DNA from: Bdellovibrionia bacterium
GTDB lineage: Bacteria > Bdellovibrionota > UBA1018
Direction: 5' to 3'
DNA length: 33,608 nucleotides
Assembly: GCA_045805065.1 (NCBI GenBank)
Contig: JBJMMA010000183.1
Location: 1-33,608 of the forward strand
Numbering within the stretch: position 1 is the first letter of the stretch; each line of letters opens with the position of its first letter. The translations under genes were made by a program, and so were the position numbers. A model generated the notes under the pieces. That model saw only the letters and a program-made list of their open reading frames with translations, ran no database searches and was not told where the DNA came from. Shown piece after piece: positions 19,002 to 33,608 of this stretch.

Positions 19002-21964
<2,963 letters not shown>

Positions 21965-25991: not shown

Positions 25992-26195
25992 TGAACTACC
26001 TTTTTGAAAATCCTTAGGAAAATCGTTGAGCGATTCATACAACTAATGAACGCCCGCGTCAATCTGATAGGGGCCGGACGGGCGCAAATTGGGCCCGGGC
26101 TCCTCTGCCGTCCGGTATAAGGATTGCACAGTCGCTGGCCCCGTTACGCCGCATCCTGTCCTGCATCAAAACCCACTCAATTAAAGGAATTCGCA

Positions 26196-27110
26196 ATGTT
26201 TCGCTCAAACGTTTCCGTTGCTGGAGCCATTTTGCCATCTGTCCACCCCCTCGTCATTATATGCGGTCTTGTTGCTGTCAGCCTGCTCTTTGGCTGCTCG
26301 GGGTCGTCCGGCATTGCCGGAATGGATGCCTCACAGGTTGGTCCTGAGTGGGCCATTCAGCTCAAATCCAGCTGTCCTGACACGCCCACTGAGAGCTGCG
26401 TGGGAGGCTATCCTTACGCAGTGGGCTCCGATGGACTTTTCCGCGTGGGCCCCGGCCCTCAAGGCCAGATCTTTACCGGCAAACTCTCGGGAGAAGAGTT
26501 GAGCGAGCTTCAAAAAATCTACGCCGAGTCTGCAGCGTCCGCACAAGCTCACTCGGGTGATGCCGTTTGCGCGCAATCCATTGTCGATTCTGGAACTGTG
26601 AACGAAGAGATTTCGTTCGTAGCTCGCGGCGGAGCATCGAACGAATGGGTTCGCACAAGTGAGCGTGACATGTGCTCACACCTTCAATCCAACGAAACGT
26701 CGCAGAAGCTTCTTGCGTACATGCACGATTCAGCATCCCGACACTACCCTCTTCCTTTTCCGGATGACAACTGCGACGGCGCTCGCGCGAATTTGGAGTC
26801 ACTCTATGGGAAAGTCCGTGAATGCAAGACAGACGCGGATTGCGCCTTCATTGATGACGCTTTTCAACCCATCGCGCAGGACTATCTCACTTTCTTGCTG
26901 AAAGGAGATTGCTCCGGAGCGCAACCTCTGGTCGTTGCAAATCGTGCAAAGGTTGCAGAAAAGCGCGGCAATCTGTTGCAAGCCTACTCGCATACACAAG
27001 AGGCGTGCAATAACAGATCTGTCACAAGCTGCAGAGGATTCTCCGACTTCCAACCGACACGCCCTGCACCAATCTGCGGCGGCGGCATCTGTCGCGCTCG
27101 AAGCGGATAA
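26196..27110 (+). CDS. Cys-rich putative lipoprotein
   Basis: SD AAGGA before ATG 26196, hydrophobic stretch and lipobox LLFGC, 12 further Cys including CKTDADC and C-terminal CGGGIC. Confidence 0.7.
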   Translation: MFRSNVSVAGAILPSVHPLVIICGLVAVSLLFGCSGSSGIAGMDASQVGPEWAIQLKSSCPDTPTESCVGGYPYAVGSDGLFRVGPGPQGQIFTGKLSGEELSELQKIYAESAASAQAHSGDAVCAQSIVDSGTVNEEISFVARGGASNEWVRTSERDMCSHLQSNETSQKLLAYMHDSASRHYPLPFPDDNCDGARANLESLYGKVRECKTDADCAFIDDAFQPIAQDYLTFLLKGDCSGAQPLVVANRAKVAEKRGNLLQAYSHTQEACNNRSVTSCRGFSDFQPTRPAPICGGGICRARSG

Positions 27111-27118
27111 CGCTCACT

Positions 27119-27140
27119 CGAGGGCGTGATAACGCCCTCG
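27119..27140. other. Perfect 9-bp hairpin downstream of the lipoprotein gene
   Basis: CGAGGGCGT-GATA-ACGCCCTCG; no U tail. Confidence 0.55.
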
Positions 27141-27289
27141 CAAGTGCAAATACTCCTTAGAAGATCTGTGAACTACGCTTTGCGGCTGCATACCCCTTGC
27201 AGAAGCTGACTGCCGTTGGCCTAAACATCTCGACGCTCCCTCCCGCTAGGCACTTCTTTTAAATCACAGAATATCTAAGGAGATATAAA

Positions 27290-27901
27290 ATGAAAAAAAT
27301 CGCACTTTGCGCAGCTGCGCTTTCCATGACCATTGGCTCTTTCGCATTCGCAGACCAGAACCAGATGCCGTCGAATCCTCGCCCTACCAAGGACTTGATG
27401 CGCATGGATTGCCGTTTCTACGGTGAAAAGCGTGAGCATGACAAGGACAAGCGTGATTGCGTCGCAAGCGCTACTTACTGGGTCATCAACAAGCACCAGA
27501 TCAAGGACATCCGCTACGGTGTGAGCTGCGATCGCCAGACGATCTACAACGACGGCGGCACCTACATGCCACAAGAGCAGGTCTCTGACGGCATCCGTCC
27601 ATGGACCGCTGCAGTTCCTCGCGTTGAGCTCATGCCACAGTTCGCTCTCCGCAACGCAGGCACTTACACCTCCAAGCTTGAAACCGACGATCAGCAGCTC
27701 ATGAACGGCGTTTGCTACGTCAACAAGCTCTACGAACAAGGTGACGACAGCAGCAGCGATAGCAGCAGTGGCAGCGGCAGCGACAGCAGCAGCGGAAGCG
27801 ATCATGGCAGCAACAGCCATGGAAACAACAGCGGCAGCGATCACGGTCACGGCAACAACAGCGACCACGGCAGCGGCCCTACCGGCACGATCCAGCACTA
27901 A
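27290..27901 (+). CDS. Secreted 4-Cys domain protein, paralog 1, with a Ser/Gly/Asp/His-rich tail
   Basis: SD AAGGAG; signal peptide ending AFA; core RMDCRFY...C...YGVSCD...IRP..AAVPRVE..P...GTYTSKL...GVCYV. Confidence 0.8.
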   Translation: MKKIALCAAALSMTIGSFAFADQNQMPSNPRPTKDLMRMDCRFYGEKREHDKDKRDCVASATYWVINKHQIKDIRYGVSCDRQTIYNDGGTYMPQEQVSDGIRPWTAAVPRVELMPQFALRNAGTYTSKLETDDQQLMNGVCYVNKLYEQGDDSSSDSSSGSGSDSSSGSDHGSNSHGNNSGSDHGHGNNSDHGSGPTGTIQH

Positions 27902-27935
27902 TCGCGACGCTTTTTACTCTTCGCGACTTACGCTC

Positions 27936-27992
27936 AAGCATCGATGTCTTCACTAGAAGTTTTGTGAGACATCGATGCTTTTTTATTTTTTT
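27936..27992 (+). terminator. Rho-independent terminator after paralog 1
   Basis: AAGCATCGATGTCT.t.CAC-N10-GTG.AGACATCGATGCTT followed by TTTTATTTTTTT. Confidence 0.8.
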
Positions 27993-28187
27993 CTCATGCT
28001 GCTCCTCTCCCACGCGCCGGGTCTGCACGCAGTTTGCAAACGATGCCGCAGCCATTTTTTCTCGATCAGCATCGCATCAACCGACAACCTTAAGCGCGGT
28101 ACGAAACTGCGCGATTCAAAGGACGCGATAGCGTCGTGTCCGAATGGCGCACGTATGCGCATTTCGGACATCCAACAAGGAGAGATC

Positions 28188-28661
28188 ATGAGAAGATTTA
28201 CCCAGTCGAACCTAACCCTTGTCCTCGCACTCTTGGTGAGCGGAGCGACATTATCCACCACGGCTTCCGCGGACCTGAAATCCAGCCGGATGCGCGTGGA
28301 CTGCCGCTTTTATTCGAACTCCCACAAGTTCTGCTACACCAGTGCTATGTACAAGGTCTACAGCACCGGCGAGATCGATGATGTCCACTACGGCATCGGT
28401 TGCGATTATGAAACCATGTACGATGATGGCGCAACGACCGAGCCGCAAGATGAGCTCTCAGACACGATTCGCCCAGGACGTGCGGCTCTTCCTCGCGTTG
28501 AGATCACACCTAAAGGCTCCTTGAGGCATCCAGGCACCTACTCATCCAAGCTTGAGACCGATCATGGTCGCTACAACGATGGCACCTGCTACGTCAGAGA
28601 GATTGACGAAGACGAAGCAGATTACCATCTCATGATGCAGAACTTGTTCTTTTTGCAATAA
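28188..28661 (+). CDS. Secreted 4-Cys domain protein, paralog 2
   Basis: SD AAGGAG before ATG 28188; signal peptide ending ASA; core RVDCRFY...CY...YGIGCD...IRP..AALPRVE..P...GTYSSKL...GTCYV. Confidence 0.8.
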   Translation: MRRFTQSNLTLVLALLVSGATLSTTASADLKSSRMRVDCRFYSNSHKFCYTSAMYKVYSTGEIDDVHYGIGCDYETMYDDGATTEPQDELSDTIRPGRAALPRVEITPKGSLRHPGTYSSKLETDHGRYNDGTCYVREIDEDEADYHLMMQNLFFLQ

Positions 28662-28682
28662 GCGCAAAAAAAGGAGCACCCA

Positions 28683-29411
28683 ATGTTGAGAAAACTTCCT
28701 ATCGGACTCATCGTTTTATCGATCTTATCCACTTCTGCTTACGCAGATTTTAGATGGGGCAGCGGATCTAATTCCGGCTCTGGCTCAAACTCCGGTTCGG
28801 GCTCTAACTCCGGATCAAACTCTGGCTCGGGCTCCGGTCCTAGCTATGGATCTGGTTCAGGTTCTGGATCGGGCTCTAAATCAGGTTCTGGCTCGAACTG
28901 GGGCTCGGGCTCCGGATCGGGCTCGCACGAGGACGAGTTCAACTATTATCGCATCGATTGCCGTTATCATGGTGGCGATCAGGACCACGATCATGGAAGT
29001 GATCACGGAAGCGATAGTAGCGGCAGCACCGGTGGCAAAATGGGCGATAAGCTCAGCGACAAGATGGGTGACAAGGGCAAATCCTATGGCGAGTACGGTG
29101 GCTCAGGCCATTCGTTCTGCTACGGCAGTGCCGTGTACCGAATCACGGATCGTGAACTTCGCGACATTCATCTTGCCATCGGCTGTGACAATCGCACGAT
29201 CTTCAACGAAGATGCGCGCGTACATACCGAGATGACCCTGGATCGCTTTCAGCCACTTCGGGCTGCAACGCCAGCCATCGAAGTATTCCCTCATGGTCAG
29301 CTGGCCACCGAGGGAACCTACACTTCGGTTCTCGATATCTCGTACGGACGCATGAAAGGTCTCTGCTACGTTCATCCAGTCAAATACGATGACATTGGAA
29401 GAAAGTATTAA
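28683..29411 (+). CDS. Secreted 4-Cys domain protein, paralog 3, with an N-terminal Gly-Ser repeat
   Basis: SD AAGGAG; signal peptide ending AYA; core RIDCRYH...CY...AIGCD...QP..AATPAIE..P...GTYTSVL...GLCYV. Confidence 0.8.
   Translation: MLRKLPIGLIVLSILSTSAYADFRWGSGSNSGSGSNSGSGSNSGSNSGSGSGPSYGSGSGSGSGSKSGSGSNWGSGSGSGSHEDEFNYYRIDCRYHGGDQDHDHGSDHGSDSSGSTGGKMGDKLSDKMGDKGKSYGEYGGSGHSFCYGSAVYRITDRELRDIHLAIGCDNRTIFNEDARVHTEMTLDRFQPLRAATPAIEVFPHGQLATEGTYTSVLDISYGRMKGLCYVHPVKYDDIGRKY
28758..28926 (+). repeat. (GS)n / GSGSNS protein repeat
   Basis: GSGSNSGSGSNSGSGSNSGSNSGSGSGPSYGSGSGSGSGSKSGSGSNWGSGSGSGS, encoded with varied synonymous codons. Confidence 0.9.
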
Positions 29412-30263
29412 TCAGACAGAGACGTTGTAGTCACGAAGTACAGAAGTCAGAGATGTCTTCTTATCCGTCTGCTCTGAACGTTTACCAATGATCAGAGCGC
29501 AAGGCACACCGTAGGTGCCAGCCGGAAACTCCTTCGGAAGAGTGCCGGGGATGACAACCGCATTGCGCGGGACGCGTCCCCGGTATTCGACCGGGTTGCC
29601 GGCCTGAGTGACATCGATAATCTTCGTGCTGGCCGTAATGACCACTCCTGCGCCCAGGACTGCGCCTTCTTCAATCACCGCGCCTTCGACCACAATGCAG
29701 CGGCTTCCGACAAAGACATGGTCTTCGATGATCACGGGACTTGCCTGCACAGGCTCAAGCACGCCGCCAATTCCCACACCGCCTGAGAGATGCACGCCCT
29801 TACCGATCTGTGCGCAAGATCCCACCGTTGCCCAGGTATCGACCATCGAGCCCTCACCCACAAAGGCGCCGATGTTGACGTAACTCGGCATCAGAATCGC
29901 GCCCGATTGAATATGCGAGCCCCGGCGAGCAACCGCTGGCGGCACAACACGAACGCCCTCTTTGCCGGTCCAAGCTTTGGTTGGAACTTTATCCACCCAG
30001 GTCATGCCAGCGGCTTCTGAGACCGACATCTTGCGGATCCGGAAATAAAGGAGAATGGCTTTCTTAATCCATTCATGGGTCTGCCAATTTCCATCGGCGC
30101 CCTTGGAGGCCACGCGGATCTCGCCTTTATCGAGCGCATCGATCACAGATTCAATCGCCTCAACAGAGGCTGGCGCATCAGCGGGCGTTTTGCCTTCATA
30201 GATCGATTCGATGATTTGCTTAAGCGATGCGAGATCAAGACTCGTAGCATTTGTGGAAGTCAC
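29412..30263 (-). CDS. dapD: 2,3,4,5-tetrahydropyridine-2,6-dicarboxylate N-succinyltransferase
   Basis: WIKKAILLYFR, RVVPPAVARRG, LMPSYVNIGA, VDTWATVGSCAQIGK.VHLSGGVGIGGVLEP. Confidence 0.97.
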   Translation of the reverse strand: MTSTNATSLDLASLKQIIESIYEGKTPADAPASVEAIESVIDALDKGEIRVASKGADGNWQTHEWIKKAILLYFRIRKMSVSEAAGMTWVDKVPTKAWTGKEGVRVVPPAVARRGSHIQSGAILMPSYVNIGAFVGEGSMVDTWATVGSCAQIGKGVHLSGGVGIGGVLEPVQASPVIIEDHVFVGSRCIVVEGAVIEEGAVLGAGVVITASTKIIDVTQAGNPVEYRGRVPRNAVVIPGTLPKEFPAGTYGVPCALIIGKRSEQTDKKTSLTSVLRDYNVSV

Positions 30264-31149: not shown

Positions 31150-32382
31150 TTGACCGCCATTCAACTAGAAACGGAGCTGCGCAGGCACTTAGCCAAGCTT
31201 CAAGGCAAGCGTAGCCGTTTTACCATCGGTGTTGAACACGAGTTTTTTCTTCTCAATTCAGAAGGAAAACCAGTTTCGCATGCCGAAGGACAAGCATTTC
31301 TAGCCGCGTTGGCGAAAGTACCTCAATGGTATATTCGCGAGGAACTTAACGAATCAGGCGAAAAGCTCATCTGGCGAGTATCTAAAGACACTCACGATGG
31401 TCGCTTCACCGCAGTTAAATACGACCACCACCCTCACCTCTTTGAGATAGCATTTGGGTACGAGAACAATCTTCATGCATTGTTTTCCGAAGTACTTGCT
31501 GTCCTACAAACCGTACGGGAAACCGCCACTTATTTGGGCCTGCGGATCGGAGCCAGTTCAAATATCGAACTTGATCCAATGGATCCCCAAATAGTCAGCC
31601 CTTTAAGCTACTTTAAGGATCTCCGCTACTATCGAAGCATTCTTTTACAAAAAAGATTTGGAGCTCAGGTCCCTTCTTCTCAAAACTATGCAGCGACTAT
31701 TGCTGCTACGCAATTCCACGTCGGCGCTACTGAATGGTGGAACAGAGAAAGTTACGTCGAAAAACTATACTGCCTTGAACCTATCCTCTTAGACTTCGTA
31801 ACAAGTCTAAGCTCAATTACATCCCCCACTACGTTTTTTAGAAAACGCTGGCAGGGTTATCGCGAGGTTTTTCAAGGATTCCCACTTGTGGGATATCCCA
31901 CACTTCCAAATTGGGACATCACTCAGTGGTCAAGTGCCTTGATTAGTTCTCCACTGGCTGGCGGCCCGAATGATCTTTGGGCTGGCAATTGCCTAAAAGA
32001 CCTTACTCGCAGTCCTTTCAATGGGTCGACGGACTTCCTCGGCGCTGTCAGAGATTTGCAACTCATTCGCCCAAAACTTTATGGCACTCTAGAGTTCAGA
32101 GCTGATCCATCGCTCGGCTCTGCGCAACATATTGTAGCAATGGCGGCCCTACGTCTCGGTCTATGTGAAGCGATAGCTTCCGAAGCTTTTAGACCCTCTC
32201 TGTCTTTTATGGACGCGCATGACCTTTGGTGGAAAAAAGTCACCTCTAATTATGCGCGAGCATCTGTCTCCATGTATACTGAAGTCATATCTCTTGCGAA
32301 AAGAGGACTCGCTCTACGTAAGTACGATGAAGCACATCACCTTGCTGCCTTCGATGACTTGCTCAAAAGGGAGGCTGCGTGA
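31150..32382 (+). CDS. Glutamate-cysteine ligase family 2 (GCS2)-like / carboxylate-amine ligase
   Basis: FTIGVEHEFFL, FEI, ATQFHVG, IRPK.YGTLEFR match the glutamine synthetase/GCS2 catalytic motifs; the sequence is divergent. Confidence 0.65.
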   Translation: MTAIQLETELRRHLAKLQGKRSRFTIGVEHEFFLLNSEGKPVSHAEGQAFLAALAKVPQWYIREELNESGEKLIWRVSKDTHDGRFTAVKYDHHPHLFEIAFGYENNLHALFSEVLAVLQTVRETATYLGLRIGASSNIELDPMDPQIVSPLSYFKDLRYYRSILLQKRFGAQVPSSQNYAATIAATQFHVGATEWWNRESYVEKLYCLEPILLDFVTSLSSITSPTTFFRKRWQGYREVFQGFPLVGYPTLPNWDITQWSSALISSPLAGGPNDLWAGNCLKDLTRSPFNGSTDFLGAVRDLQLIRPKLYGTLEFRADPSLGSAQHIVAMAALRLGLCEAIASEAFRPSLSFMDAHDLWWKKVTSNYARASVSMYTEVISLAKRGLALRKYDEAHHLAAFDDLLKREAA

Positions 32383-33608
32383 ACCTCATTAAGGATGCAC
32401 GCACCATAGCAGGACTGTTCCGAGAGGCACTCTTTCACTCACGGTCTGTACAGATTATTTCGGCCGATTATGGCGATATTACTGCCTTGATTACCGATCT
32501 CCAAGAAGACTCATCTAGAGATATCAGCACTGAGCGCCAACTTTTTTTAACGTCTTCAATTACCATTAATAATCTTAGTGATAGCTTTTCCGCTAAGATC
32601 CGTTGCGCTTTCCCACAGTTCGTACTCTTCTGGAACGGAACGATCACAAAATCGGAGACAGGCGAACTCGTCGTCACACTTCCAGCCGAAGTCCATTTAG
32701 AGAACTCTCGGACGCAAGCGCGCGTAGAGCTTATAAAGTCAACGTCGCCATCTGGCCCCATCTTGGTCAATACAGATACCTTTTGTACCGAAGGCATTTT
32801 TCAAATAGAGGATATTTCCGAAGGCGGCTTTGGTGGAAGTCTTCGTGTATTTCCAGAAATGCCCATTAGGATCGGCACACAGCTTCAAGGACGCATAAAG
32901 ACCCCTACAGGTATCATCGAAGTAAACGGACAGGTTGTCCAAGTCTCTCTGCACTCAGCAGCTAATACGTCACAAGCAGATGCAATCTACCGAGTCGGAG
33001 TTAAGAATCAGACCTTCAATCAATCTACAGTCCACTCACCACCAACCCAATCCGAACGCCGTAAATTTAAGCGTGTGCCCGTGCAACTGGATATCAATCT
33101 GCTCTCCCCTTACCATCCAGAGCACGTAGTCAGCGGACTCATCTTAGATGCATCACTGGCTGGATTTCTTGCTCGTCTCAAAGACATATCAGATGCAATA
33201 CTTCTTCCAGTAGGATGCATCGTTCAGATTCCGCAGACGTCCATTCTGGCACAAGTTATCTCTCTAGAGGATGAAAACGTCCGTTTTCAAATTGTGCAAA
33301 GCAACTCAAAGGATCGAGTTGAGTGGTTTAAACGACTTACTCCTTATTTGAACAAGAACACATCTCATTCGACTGCAACAGGAATGGACATCATTGAGCT
33401 CTTCTGCGAATCAGGAGCTCTAGCTTCCACCTATCTAAAAAACCAACGGCGTTTTGCAGAAGATTTTTTAGAAGCGTTTACAGCACGTGACTCTCAAGGG
33501 AGTTGGATTTATCGCTGGATCGAGCGCGACGAGGAAGGCAAAATTCGAGGTCACAACAGCATCGTTAGGCTCTCGGATCATACTTGGTCTTGGGGATCAG
33601 TTGCTGGA
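32379..33608 (+). CDS. Tandem PilZ-domain protein (3'-truncated; absent from the ORF track)
   Basis: GTG at 32379 (GTGA overlap, SD AGGGAGG). My manual translation is open for 410 codons to the window end, with RTQAR (32709)...DISEGG (32811) and ERRKFKR (33054)...DASLAG (33147). Confidence 0.75.
   Translation, partial: MNLIKDARTIAGLFREALFHSRSVQIISADYGDITALITDLQEDSSRDISTERQLFLTSSITINNLSDSFSAKIRCAFPQFVLFWNGTITKSETGELVVTLPAEVHLENSRTQARVELIKSTSPSGPILVNTDTFCTEGIFQIEDISEGGFGGSLRVFPEMPIRIGTQLQGRIKTPTGIIEVNGQVVQVSLHSAANTSQADAIYRVGVKNQTFNQSTVHSPPTQSERRKFKRVPVQLDINLLSPYHPEHVVSGLILDASLAGFLARLKDISDAILLPVGCIVQIPQTSILAQVISLEDENVRFQIVQSNSKDRVEWFKRLTPYLNKNTSHSTATGMDIIELFCESGALASTYLKNQRRFAEDFLEAFTARDSQGSWIYRWIERDEEGKIRGHNSIVRLSDHTWSWGSVAG

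Follow-up and report, generated by a model that had tools for sequence, protein, structure and literature searches.

Among the small soluble proteins of Gram-negative envelopes, the PliC/MliC proteins (PF09864), which inhibit c-type lysozymes through conserved loop residues, and the Neisseria protein ACP are Sec-exported, eight-stranded antiparallel beta-barrels of approximately 100 aa. Proteins of the ZinT/YodA type are periplasmic metal-binding beta-barrels in which a flexible His-rich segment serves metal handling. In fimbrial-type operons, the gene for the major subunit is followed by an attenuating terminator and then by the genes for the minor subunits. The barrel of the Burkholderia DUF1842 protein Q63NT7 (structure 8t0b) has eight strands and a hydrophobic interior without a channel; its function is not known, and the available part of its published description does not mention a signal peptide (PMC10994174). 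Here, we analysed a 33,608-nt stretch of DNA (hereafter, the window; positions 1 to 33,608 of contig JBJMMA010000183.1, assembly GCA_045805065.1) from a Bdellovibrionia bacterium of the phylum Bdellovibrionota, focusing on three genes, p1 (27290-27901), p2 (28188-28661) and p3 (28683-29411), and on a lipoprotein gene upstream of them (26196-27110). A first-pass annotation had described p1-p3 as adjacent secreted paralogs sharing an unrecognised beta-rich domain with four cysteines. The three tandem plus-strand genes were confirmed, and p1-p3 represent a previously undescribed, lineage-restricted family of exported domains: the fold class is already known, whereas the family, the cassette and its layout are undescribed in Pfam, NCBIfam, PDB and the literature searched.

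The four-cysteine domain and its predicted barrel fold

The products of p1, p2 and p3 share a core of approximately 110 residues. BLASTP comparisons yielded E values of 4e-36 for p1 and p2 (46% over 117 aa), 4e-21 for p2 and p3, and 1e-15 for p1 and p3, and the three-way alignment contains 33 invariant columns, all four cysteines among them, in agreement with the core motif proposed in the first-pass annotation. The span between Cys1 and Cys2, for which a range of 9 to about 50 residues had been given, measures 15 residues in p1, 9 in p2 and 52 in p3. As had also been noted, each gene is preceded by the Shine-Dalgarno sequence AAGGAG, read from the DNA at 27277-27282, 28177-28182 and 28671-28676, that is, 7, 5 and 6 nt upstream of the ATG codons at 27290, 28188 and 28683, respectively. 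The longest open reading frame (ORF) of p2 opens at 27975, but its true start is at 28188, because 8 of the 9 relatives in the database share the corresponding Met as their first residue, the ninth being devoid of its N-terminus. All three proteins start with Sec signal peptides displaying a basic n-region, a hydrophobic stretch and an A-x-A cleavage site (AFA↓D, ASA↓D and AYA↓D), which, like the lipobox of the lipoprotein, were read by eye rather than by a predictor. In p1 (P0001, 203 aa), the signal peptide (residues 1-21) is followed by the barrel core (approximately 37-148) and a Ser/Asp/Gly/His-rich tail (149-203). In p2 (P0002, 157 aa), signal peptide (1-28) and barrel (31-138) precede a conserved, acidic-then-hydrophobic C-terminal peptide (...DYHLMMQNLFFLQ), which is shared by the p2 orthologues and ends in Gln. 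The signal peptide of p3 (P0003, 242 aa; residues 1-21) is separated by a Gly/Ser/Asn linker of about 60 aa from a barrel with a 52-residue beta1-beta2 loop rich in Asp, His, Gly, Ser and Lys.

Searches of Pfam and NCBIfam at E ≤ 1 produced no match near a curated cut-off for p1-p3, the hits being noise confined to signal peptides and tails of low complexity; a 15-sequence profile had no match among PDB sequences at E ≤ 10, nothing in the ESM Atlas reached 0.9 for p2 or for the lipoprotein, and no description of the family was found in the literature searched. A word-index search of 5.8 billion proteins with p2 recovered 9 proteins from 67 candidates, all unnamed, and a profile search of 1.84 billion representatives recovered 53 proteins at E ≤ 1e-3, including 46 at E ≤ 1e-10 and 27 at E ≤ 1e-30. 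Four long profile matches (768-1478 aa, each involving several short stretches) were judged spurious, three of them being repeat proteins (Kelch/DUF2510, BACON and TPR) and the fourth having no Pfam match; the size of the family is approximately 49 clusters among the 1.84 billion representatives. Members are present in 5 of the 75 genomes of the source's family (5 of the 38 that are at least 90% complete) and in 4 of 48 genera. In a sample of the phylum, 5 of 401 genomes matched, and the single one outside the family belongs to the same order. The family is rare and, in matching genomes, always forms tandem pairs or trios. Exactly three copies are present in the source assembly (4.22 Mb, 262 contigs, 94% complete). 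A locus scan with p2 orthologues identified one locus on a genome contig, in a genome of the same genus (G001), and one metagenomic locus carrying a barrel pair (L013), and words of the locus were detected in soil or rhizosphere DNA metagenomes (8 listed runs, 4 with shares of 0.21-0.32 and 4 with shares of 0.05-0.06), whereas no RNA dataset was listed.

The AlphaFold2 model of p2, based on a 15-row alignment, had a mean predicted local distance difference test score (pLDDT) of 80.5, with 10-residue blocks over residues 31-140 averaging 83-97. It predicts with confidence (core pLDDT >90) a closed barrel of eight strands (residues 32-42, 48-58, 63-72, 75-83, 92-96, 103-107, 116-124 and 127-138), followed by a low-confidence helix (141-155), so that the beta-rich character anticipated from the sequence was borne out. 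A Foldseek search of the PDB with this model returned no match at E ≤ 1e-3. VIA-align aligned the model with many eight-stranded barrels at Z 5-8.7, at the stated background level of the tool (Z 7-8), and the similarity is only generic; these barrels include AttH-type and pericyclase domains, de novo designed barrels, OmpA/OmpW/PagL, PliC/MliC/ACP, avidins and fHbp/NHBA/HpuA. The DUF1842 barrel is among the best compact superpositions (Z 8.4, root-mean-square deviation [rmsd] 3.5, 104 of 121 residues) but has no sequence relation to p1-p3, and the match explains nothing about their function. Barrels of the Slam/type 11 cargo type (TbpB, fHbp, HpuA and haemophilin) matched at Z 4-5.8. No DUF560 domain was detected in a scan of 12 flanking ORFs, and the Slam family PF04575 had no match in the genome, nor in any of 14 control genomes.

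The core face of the strands is hydrophobic and conserved (M35, V37, C39 and F41; C49, A53, Y55 and V57; V66, Y68, I70 and C72; G132, C134 and V136), whereas the opposite face, judged from the model and the alignment, consists mostly of Arg, Asp, Lys, Glu, Thr and Ser, with R36, D38 and R40 invariant. This charged and polar surface points to barrels that are soluble rather than embedded in a membrane. Outer-membrane eight-stranded barrels of the OmpA/OmpW/PagL/NspA type (Z 6.9-7.5) were rejected for the same polar face and because the strands of the model are just 5-12 residues long. In the register of the strands, C49 lies opposite C72 in the beta2-beta3 hairpin (49+72 = 58+63), and C39 and C134 are located on the adjacent strands of the beta1-beta8 seam. 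Given this register, the disulfides are likely to pair Cys1 with Cys4 and Cys2 with Cys3, all four cysteines facing the barrel interior, in which case the variable stretch between Cys1 and Cys2 would simply be the beta1-beta2 hairpin loop. A complex prediction for the p1 core and the p3 core, with p2 as partner and each with its own alignment, scored 0.00 against a mark of 0.32 and speaks neither for nor against a complex.

A barrel with a hydrophobic interior could carry a small hydrophobic or amphipathic ligand, as in lipocalins, avidins and haemophilins, with different specificities among the paralogs. Compatible with such a role are the eight-stranded meander followed by a helix, the conserved hydrophobic positions facing inwards, and the presence of avidins, nitrobindin, fHbp/NHBA/HpuA/haemophilin and AttH-type barrels among the structural matches (Z 4-8.7), with avidins at Z 4.9-5.7 and lipocalins in weak Foldseek rows only. 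However, a barrel of approximately 110 residues with two internal disulfides offers hardly any space for a cavity, Pfam gave no signal of lipocalins, avidins or any other family at E ≤ 1, and no transporter or biosynthetic gene is linked to the locus. We regard barrel-borne carriers as highly doubtful; the broader suggestion of the first-pass annotation, a diversified ligand-binding family, is possible.

Conservation and expression of the cassette

The first-pass description is extended by a fourth conserved gene upstream of p1, as well as by the likely disulfide pattern and the Asp/His-rich variable segments considered below. This gene (P0069; 26196-27110, plus strand; start set by homologue alignment) encodes a Cys-rich lipoprotein of 304 aa with the lipobox LLFG↓C and 12 invariant cysteines, and a stable hairpin without a U-run lies directly 3' of its stop codon (27115-27146, plus strand; dG -23.8 kcal/mol, z -5.7, equalled by 0 of 200 shuffles). 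The lipoprotein has no Pfam match. The AlphaFold2 model of the lipoprotein is good only over residues 50-185, the N-domain (block-mean pLDDT approximately 72-94), which aligned best, and as the one clear match, with the platform fold of Mago nashi (Z 8.0, rmsd 5.5, 121 aa), the next rows being at or below 5.7; Foldseek found no PDB match at E ≤ 1e-3. Emfourin/DUF6438, to which the ESM Atlas pointed for the N-domain (0.81-0.83), was not supported by Pfam (0 of 7 homologues at E ≤ 10).

The lipoprotein is conserved beside the barrels in three genera. The order lipoprotein-p1-p2-p3 is common to the source genome (G000), to G001 of the same genus and to G006 of another genus, in which the outer flanks differ. 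G083, from a third genus, carries two divergent barrel genes downstream of a lipoprotein homologue, and the tandem barrel pairs of G062 and G308 have no adjoining lipoprotein. In the maximum likelihood tree of 61 family members (the fragment P0054 was omitted; support values are SH-aLRT only), the p3 proteins of G000, G001 and G006 form one clade (98), p1 forms another (94), and p1 and p2 are united in a third (99), at the base of which the p2 of G006 is unresolved. The separate p1, p2 and p3 clades across genera indicate that the trio and its gene order predate the split of the G000 and G006 genera and that each member of the trio has been retained. Between G000 and G001, the nonsynonymous divergence (dN) of the four cassette genes is 0.19-0.26, compared to 0.04-0.08 for the flanking ygiQ and dapD genes, a 2.4- to 6.5-fold difference. 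The dN/dS ratios in this comparison are 0.09-0.28 (synonymous divergence, dS, being saturated); values of 0.13-0.28 mark p1-p3 and the lipoprotein gene, by this measure, as real genes under constraint.

A second paralog of the lipoprotein was observed on another contig of the source genome (C226; L036, 749-4733), as well as in G004 (L028) and G090 (L031). At these loci, it is clustered, in a conserved arrangement, with two lipoproteins that have no Pfam match and with a TGase_elicitor-like lipoprotein (PF16683, E 7e-20 in G090); the cluster looks like a separate and wider envelope module of the bacterial family. In G006, we also observed an ORF of 119 aa (L011, G006:C2, 3795-4154, minus strand), composed mostly of His-rich motifs and containing several cysteines, at a distance of approximately 2.2 kb from the barrel trio.

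The first-pass annotation had assigned p1 its own terminator and p2-p3 to an apparent second unit, and both assignments held. The terminator (27936-27992, plus strand) consists of a 17-pair hairpin with one bulge (27936-27980; dG -25.3 kcal/mol, z -6.0, equalled by 0 of 200 shuffles) and the run U4AU7. It recurs with a nearly identical stem in G001, and in G006 the sequence is unrelated, yet a hairpin and a U-run follow p1 there as well (z -5.6). Downstream, p2 and p3 are separated by 21 nt in the window and by 21-51 nt across the loci compared. These features support a division into two expression units, one consisting of p1 and the other of p2 and p3. At 29409-29414, the p3 stop codon abuts that of a convergent dapD-like gene (29412-30263, minus strand), as it does in G001, and with zero intergenic bases there is no space for a terminator between the two genes.

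The codon adaptation index (CAI), a proxy of expression for which the reference consisted of five ORFs around a tuf-like gene, identified by eye and with the help of one motif, is 0.789 for full-length p1 and 0.815 for its core, with, respectively, 4 and 1 of the 3751 ORFs of at least 100 aa scoring higher. By contrast, 527 ORFs rank above p2, 410 above p3 and 1139 above the lipoprotein. GroEL-, EF-G-, DnaK-, ATP-synthase- and ribosomal-protein-like ORFs occupy the top of the ranking, and this validates the proxy. Applied to the orthologues in G001, the same weights give scores of 0.75 (p1), 0.48 (p2) and 0.45 (p3), and the proportion of synonymous differences (pS) between G000 and G001 is lowest for p1 (0.44, versus 0.57-0.73). 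Thus, p1 is predicted to be the major, very highly expressed form.

This layout, a highly expressed first paralog, a terminator and weaker paralogs, resembles the expression logic of fimbrial-type operons, and the first-pass annotation had proposed a heteromeric fibre, coat or matrix with p1 as its main component. Such a structure, with p1 as bulk subunit, p2 and p3 as minor or adaptor subunits and the lipoprotein as anchor, would account for the extreme codon adaptation of p1, for the terminator after it in two genera, for the weaker p2-p3 unit and for the maintenance of three orthogroups in a fixed order, and the C-terminal peptide of p2 could dock on a partner. However, the eight-stranded barrel of the model is closed and complete and offers neither a missing strand nor a repeat to drive polymerisation, unlike chaperone-usher subunits, which have an incomplete Ig fold, and no chaperone, usher, secretin, sortase-like, other assembly or outer-membrane export gene is found in the neighbourhood. 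The barrel pairs of G062 and G308, moreover, would be without the anchor. Chaperone-usher and curli amyloid subunits were rejected on the same grounds, the closed barrel and the absence of assembly genes among the neighbours, together with the absence of tandem repeats from the core. The prediction of p1 as the major component is retained, whereas the fibre, coat or matrix itself appears unlikely.

The fold and the rapid evolution of the cassette relative to its flanks could also fit periplasmic proteinaceous inhibitors which, like PliC, MliC and ACP, would block a lysozyme, a protease or a transglutaminase-like enzyme, for example, to shield the envelope of a predator. The structural matches include PliC (3oe3, Z 7.2, rmsd 2.9, 82 aa; 4mir, Z 6.8), YdhA (2f09, Z 5.5) and the Neisseria ACP (Z 6.7), and MliC is the nearest named Atlas cluster for p2 (0.76, a lead only). 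Furthermore, the lipoprotein family elsewhere adjoins a TGase_elicitor-like enzyme, and the weak Atlas leads for its N-domain are to Emfourin/DUF6438. Yet these Z values, 5.5-7.2 for the PliC/MliC and ACP barrels, are at the background of the tool; p1-p3 have no match to the MliC profile (PF09864) at E ≤ 1, and in an hhalign comparison of the 15-sequence profile with E. coli MliC (probability 7%) the signal peptides alone were aligned. PliC/MliC inhibitors, for which no sequence or profile relation to p1-p3 was found, are not encoded in conserved tandem trios and, to our knowledge, lack the four-Cys pattern and Asp/His-rich arms. In addition, no hydrolase gene is located in or beside the cassette, a codon adaptation among the top five would be unusual for an inhibitor, and the Emfourin/DUF6438 leads lack the Pfam support mentioned above. 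An inhibitory role is, in our view, distinctly improbable.

Variable arms and the possible role of the barrels

The variable parts of the family are insertions placed N-terminal or C-terminal to the barrel or within its beta1-beta2 or beta2-beta3 loop, often with a high content of Asp, His, Ser, Gly, Lys and Asn. We surveyed 58 members, 6 of which failed the parser. Among the 52 parsed members, 15 contain a stretch of 20 aa or more in which Asp+His make up at least 20% of the residues, at the N-terminus, in the beta1-beta2 loop or at the C-terminus; these include the tail of p1 and the loop of p3. Windows of 20 aa with at least 8 Asp+His residues occur in only 3 of the 927 crudely signal-peptide-positive ORFs of the genome, the loop of p3 being among them.

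Considering these segments together with the layout of the cassette, the reading we tentatively put first, as possible rather than probable, is that of a tuned set of non-enzymatic envelope proteins, with p1 as the major and p2 and p3 as minor components, acting together with the lipoprotein and bearing acidic/His arms as putative binders of divalent cations. The four genes would form an envelope cassette of an outer-membrane-type lipoprotein and three anciently diverged paralogs of disulfide-stapled soluble barrels. The barrels would serve as scaffolds, p1 being produced in bulk and p2 and p3 at low copy from the second unit, and would act with the lipoprotein in the periplasm or on the cell surface. 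The working parts would be the fast-changing, disordered loops and tails rich in Asp, His, Ser and Gly, most likely through the binding of divalent cations, for metal buffering, sequestration or a hydrated cation-binding layer, and the conserved C-terminal peptide of p2 may be a docking element. By analogy, the arms would then follow a working principle similar to that of ZinT/YodA. In contrast to ZinT/YodA, however, p1-p3 lack an invariant cluster of His within the barrel as well as neighbours of the znuABC type, ZinT is absent from the 50 listed structural matches, and p1-p3 have no Pfam match at E ≤ 1.

Several observations weigh against this set of cation-binding envelope proteins. The Asp/His arms are absent from p2 and from 37 of the 52 parsed members, which excludes cation binding as a function of the barrel as such, and there is no invariant cluster of His or Asp within the barrel. 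The similarity of the fold to known structures, being at background level, provides no functional pointer, and the predicted abundance of p1 depends on the codon proxy and its small reference described above. Much more widespread than the barrels, the lipoprotein family occurs in 42 of the 75 family genomes, compared to 5 for the barrels, and its commoner copy sits in another cluster, with the TGase_elicitor-like protein, indicating that partnership with the barrels is not obligatory for the lipoprotein.

A bolder version of the cation-binding reading, to which we assign a very slim chance, envisages, for soil bacteria of the Bacteriovoracaceae type, an abundant and previously undescribed system, secreted or part of the envelope, in which 'barrel-on-a-string' proteins would sequester divalent cations with their polyanionic, His-rich arms. 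These proteins might form a new kind of surface layer made up of closed barrels, organised by the lipoprotein and with p2 and p3 as adaptors, or might serve as a predation aid stripping Mg2+ and Ca2+ from the outer membrane of the prey.

Elsewhere in the source genome, an ORF of 261 aa (C16:1571-2356, plus strand) encodes a signal peptide followed by a His/Asp-dense stretch (11 of 20 residues) and has a CAI of 0.751 (rank 15); its product may be another abundant exported metal-binding protein.

Neighbouring genes and implications for the lineage

Antisense to p1, an Ala/Val-rich ORF of 207 aa (27275-27898, minus strand) is slightly longer than p1 itself. It was rejected as a shadow of the repetitive Ser/Gly/Asp codons of p1, the plus-strand frame being backed by homologues, codon adaptation and dN/dS, and represents a possible mis-call by automatic annotation. 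The single Rfam match over 26000-29600, to isrG on the minus strand inside p1, remained below the gathering score of 100 (23.8 bits) and was taken as noise. Further from the cassette, a queuine tRNA-ribosyltransferase domain (PF01702, E 3e-142) and a Methyltransf_30 domain (PF05430, E 3.5e-14) are combined in a minus-strand ORF of 700 aa (19856-21958). On the plus strand, an ORF of 410 aa without a Pfam match (31150-32382) overlaps by 4 nt the next ORF (32379-33608), which contains a weak PilZ domain (E 4e-8) and continues past the edge of the window.

Should the present interpretation be true, databases would gain a new domain family, seen only in its own order, along with a conserved four-gene envelope module. 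If the acidic/His arms bind cations, the barrels would represent a new scaffold for periplasmic metal handling; if they do not, p1-p3 would be an ordinary lineage-specific hypothetical family. Furthermore, if the codon signal is right, p1, a member of an unnamed family, would be among the most abundant proteins of an uncultured predatory-type lineage. The proteins p1, its partners and the lipoprotein would also offer a concrete target for understanding how Bdellovibrionota build or arm their envelope.

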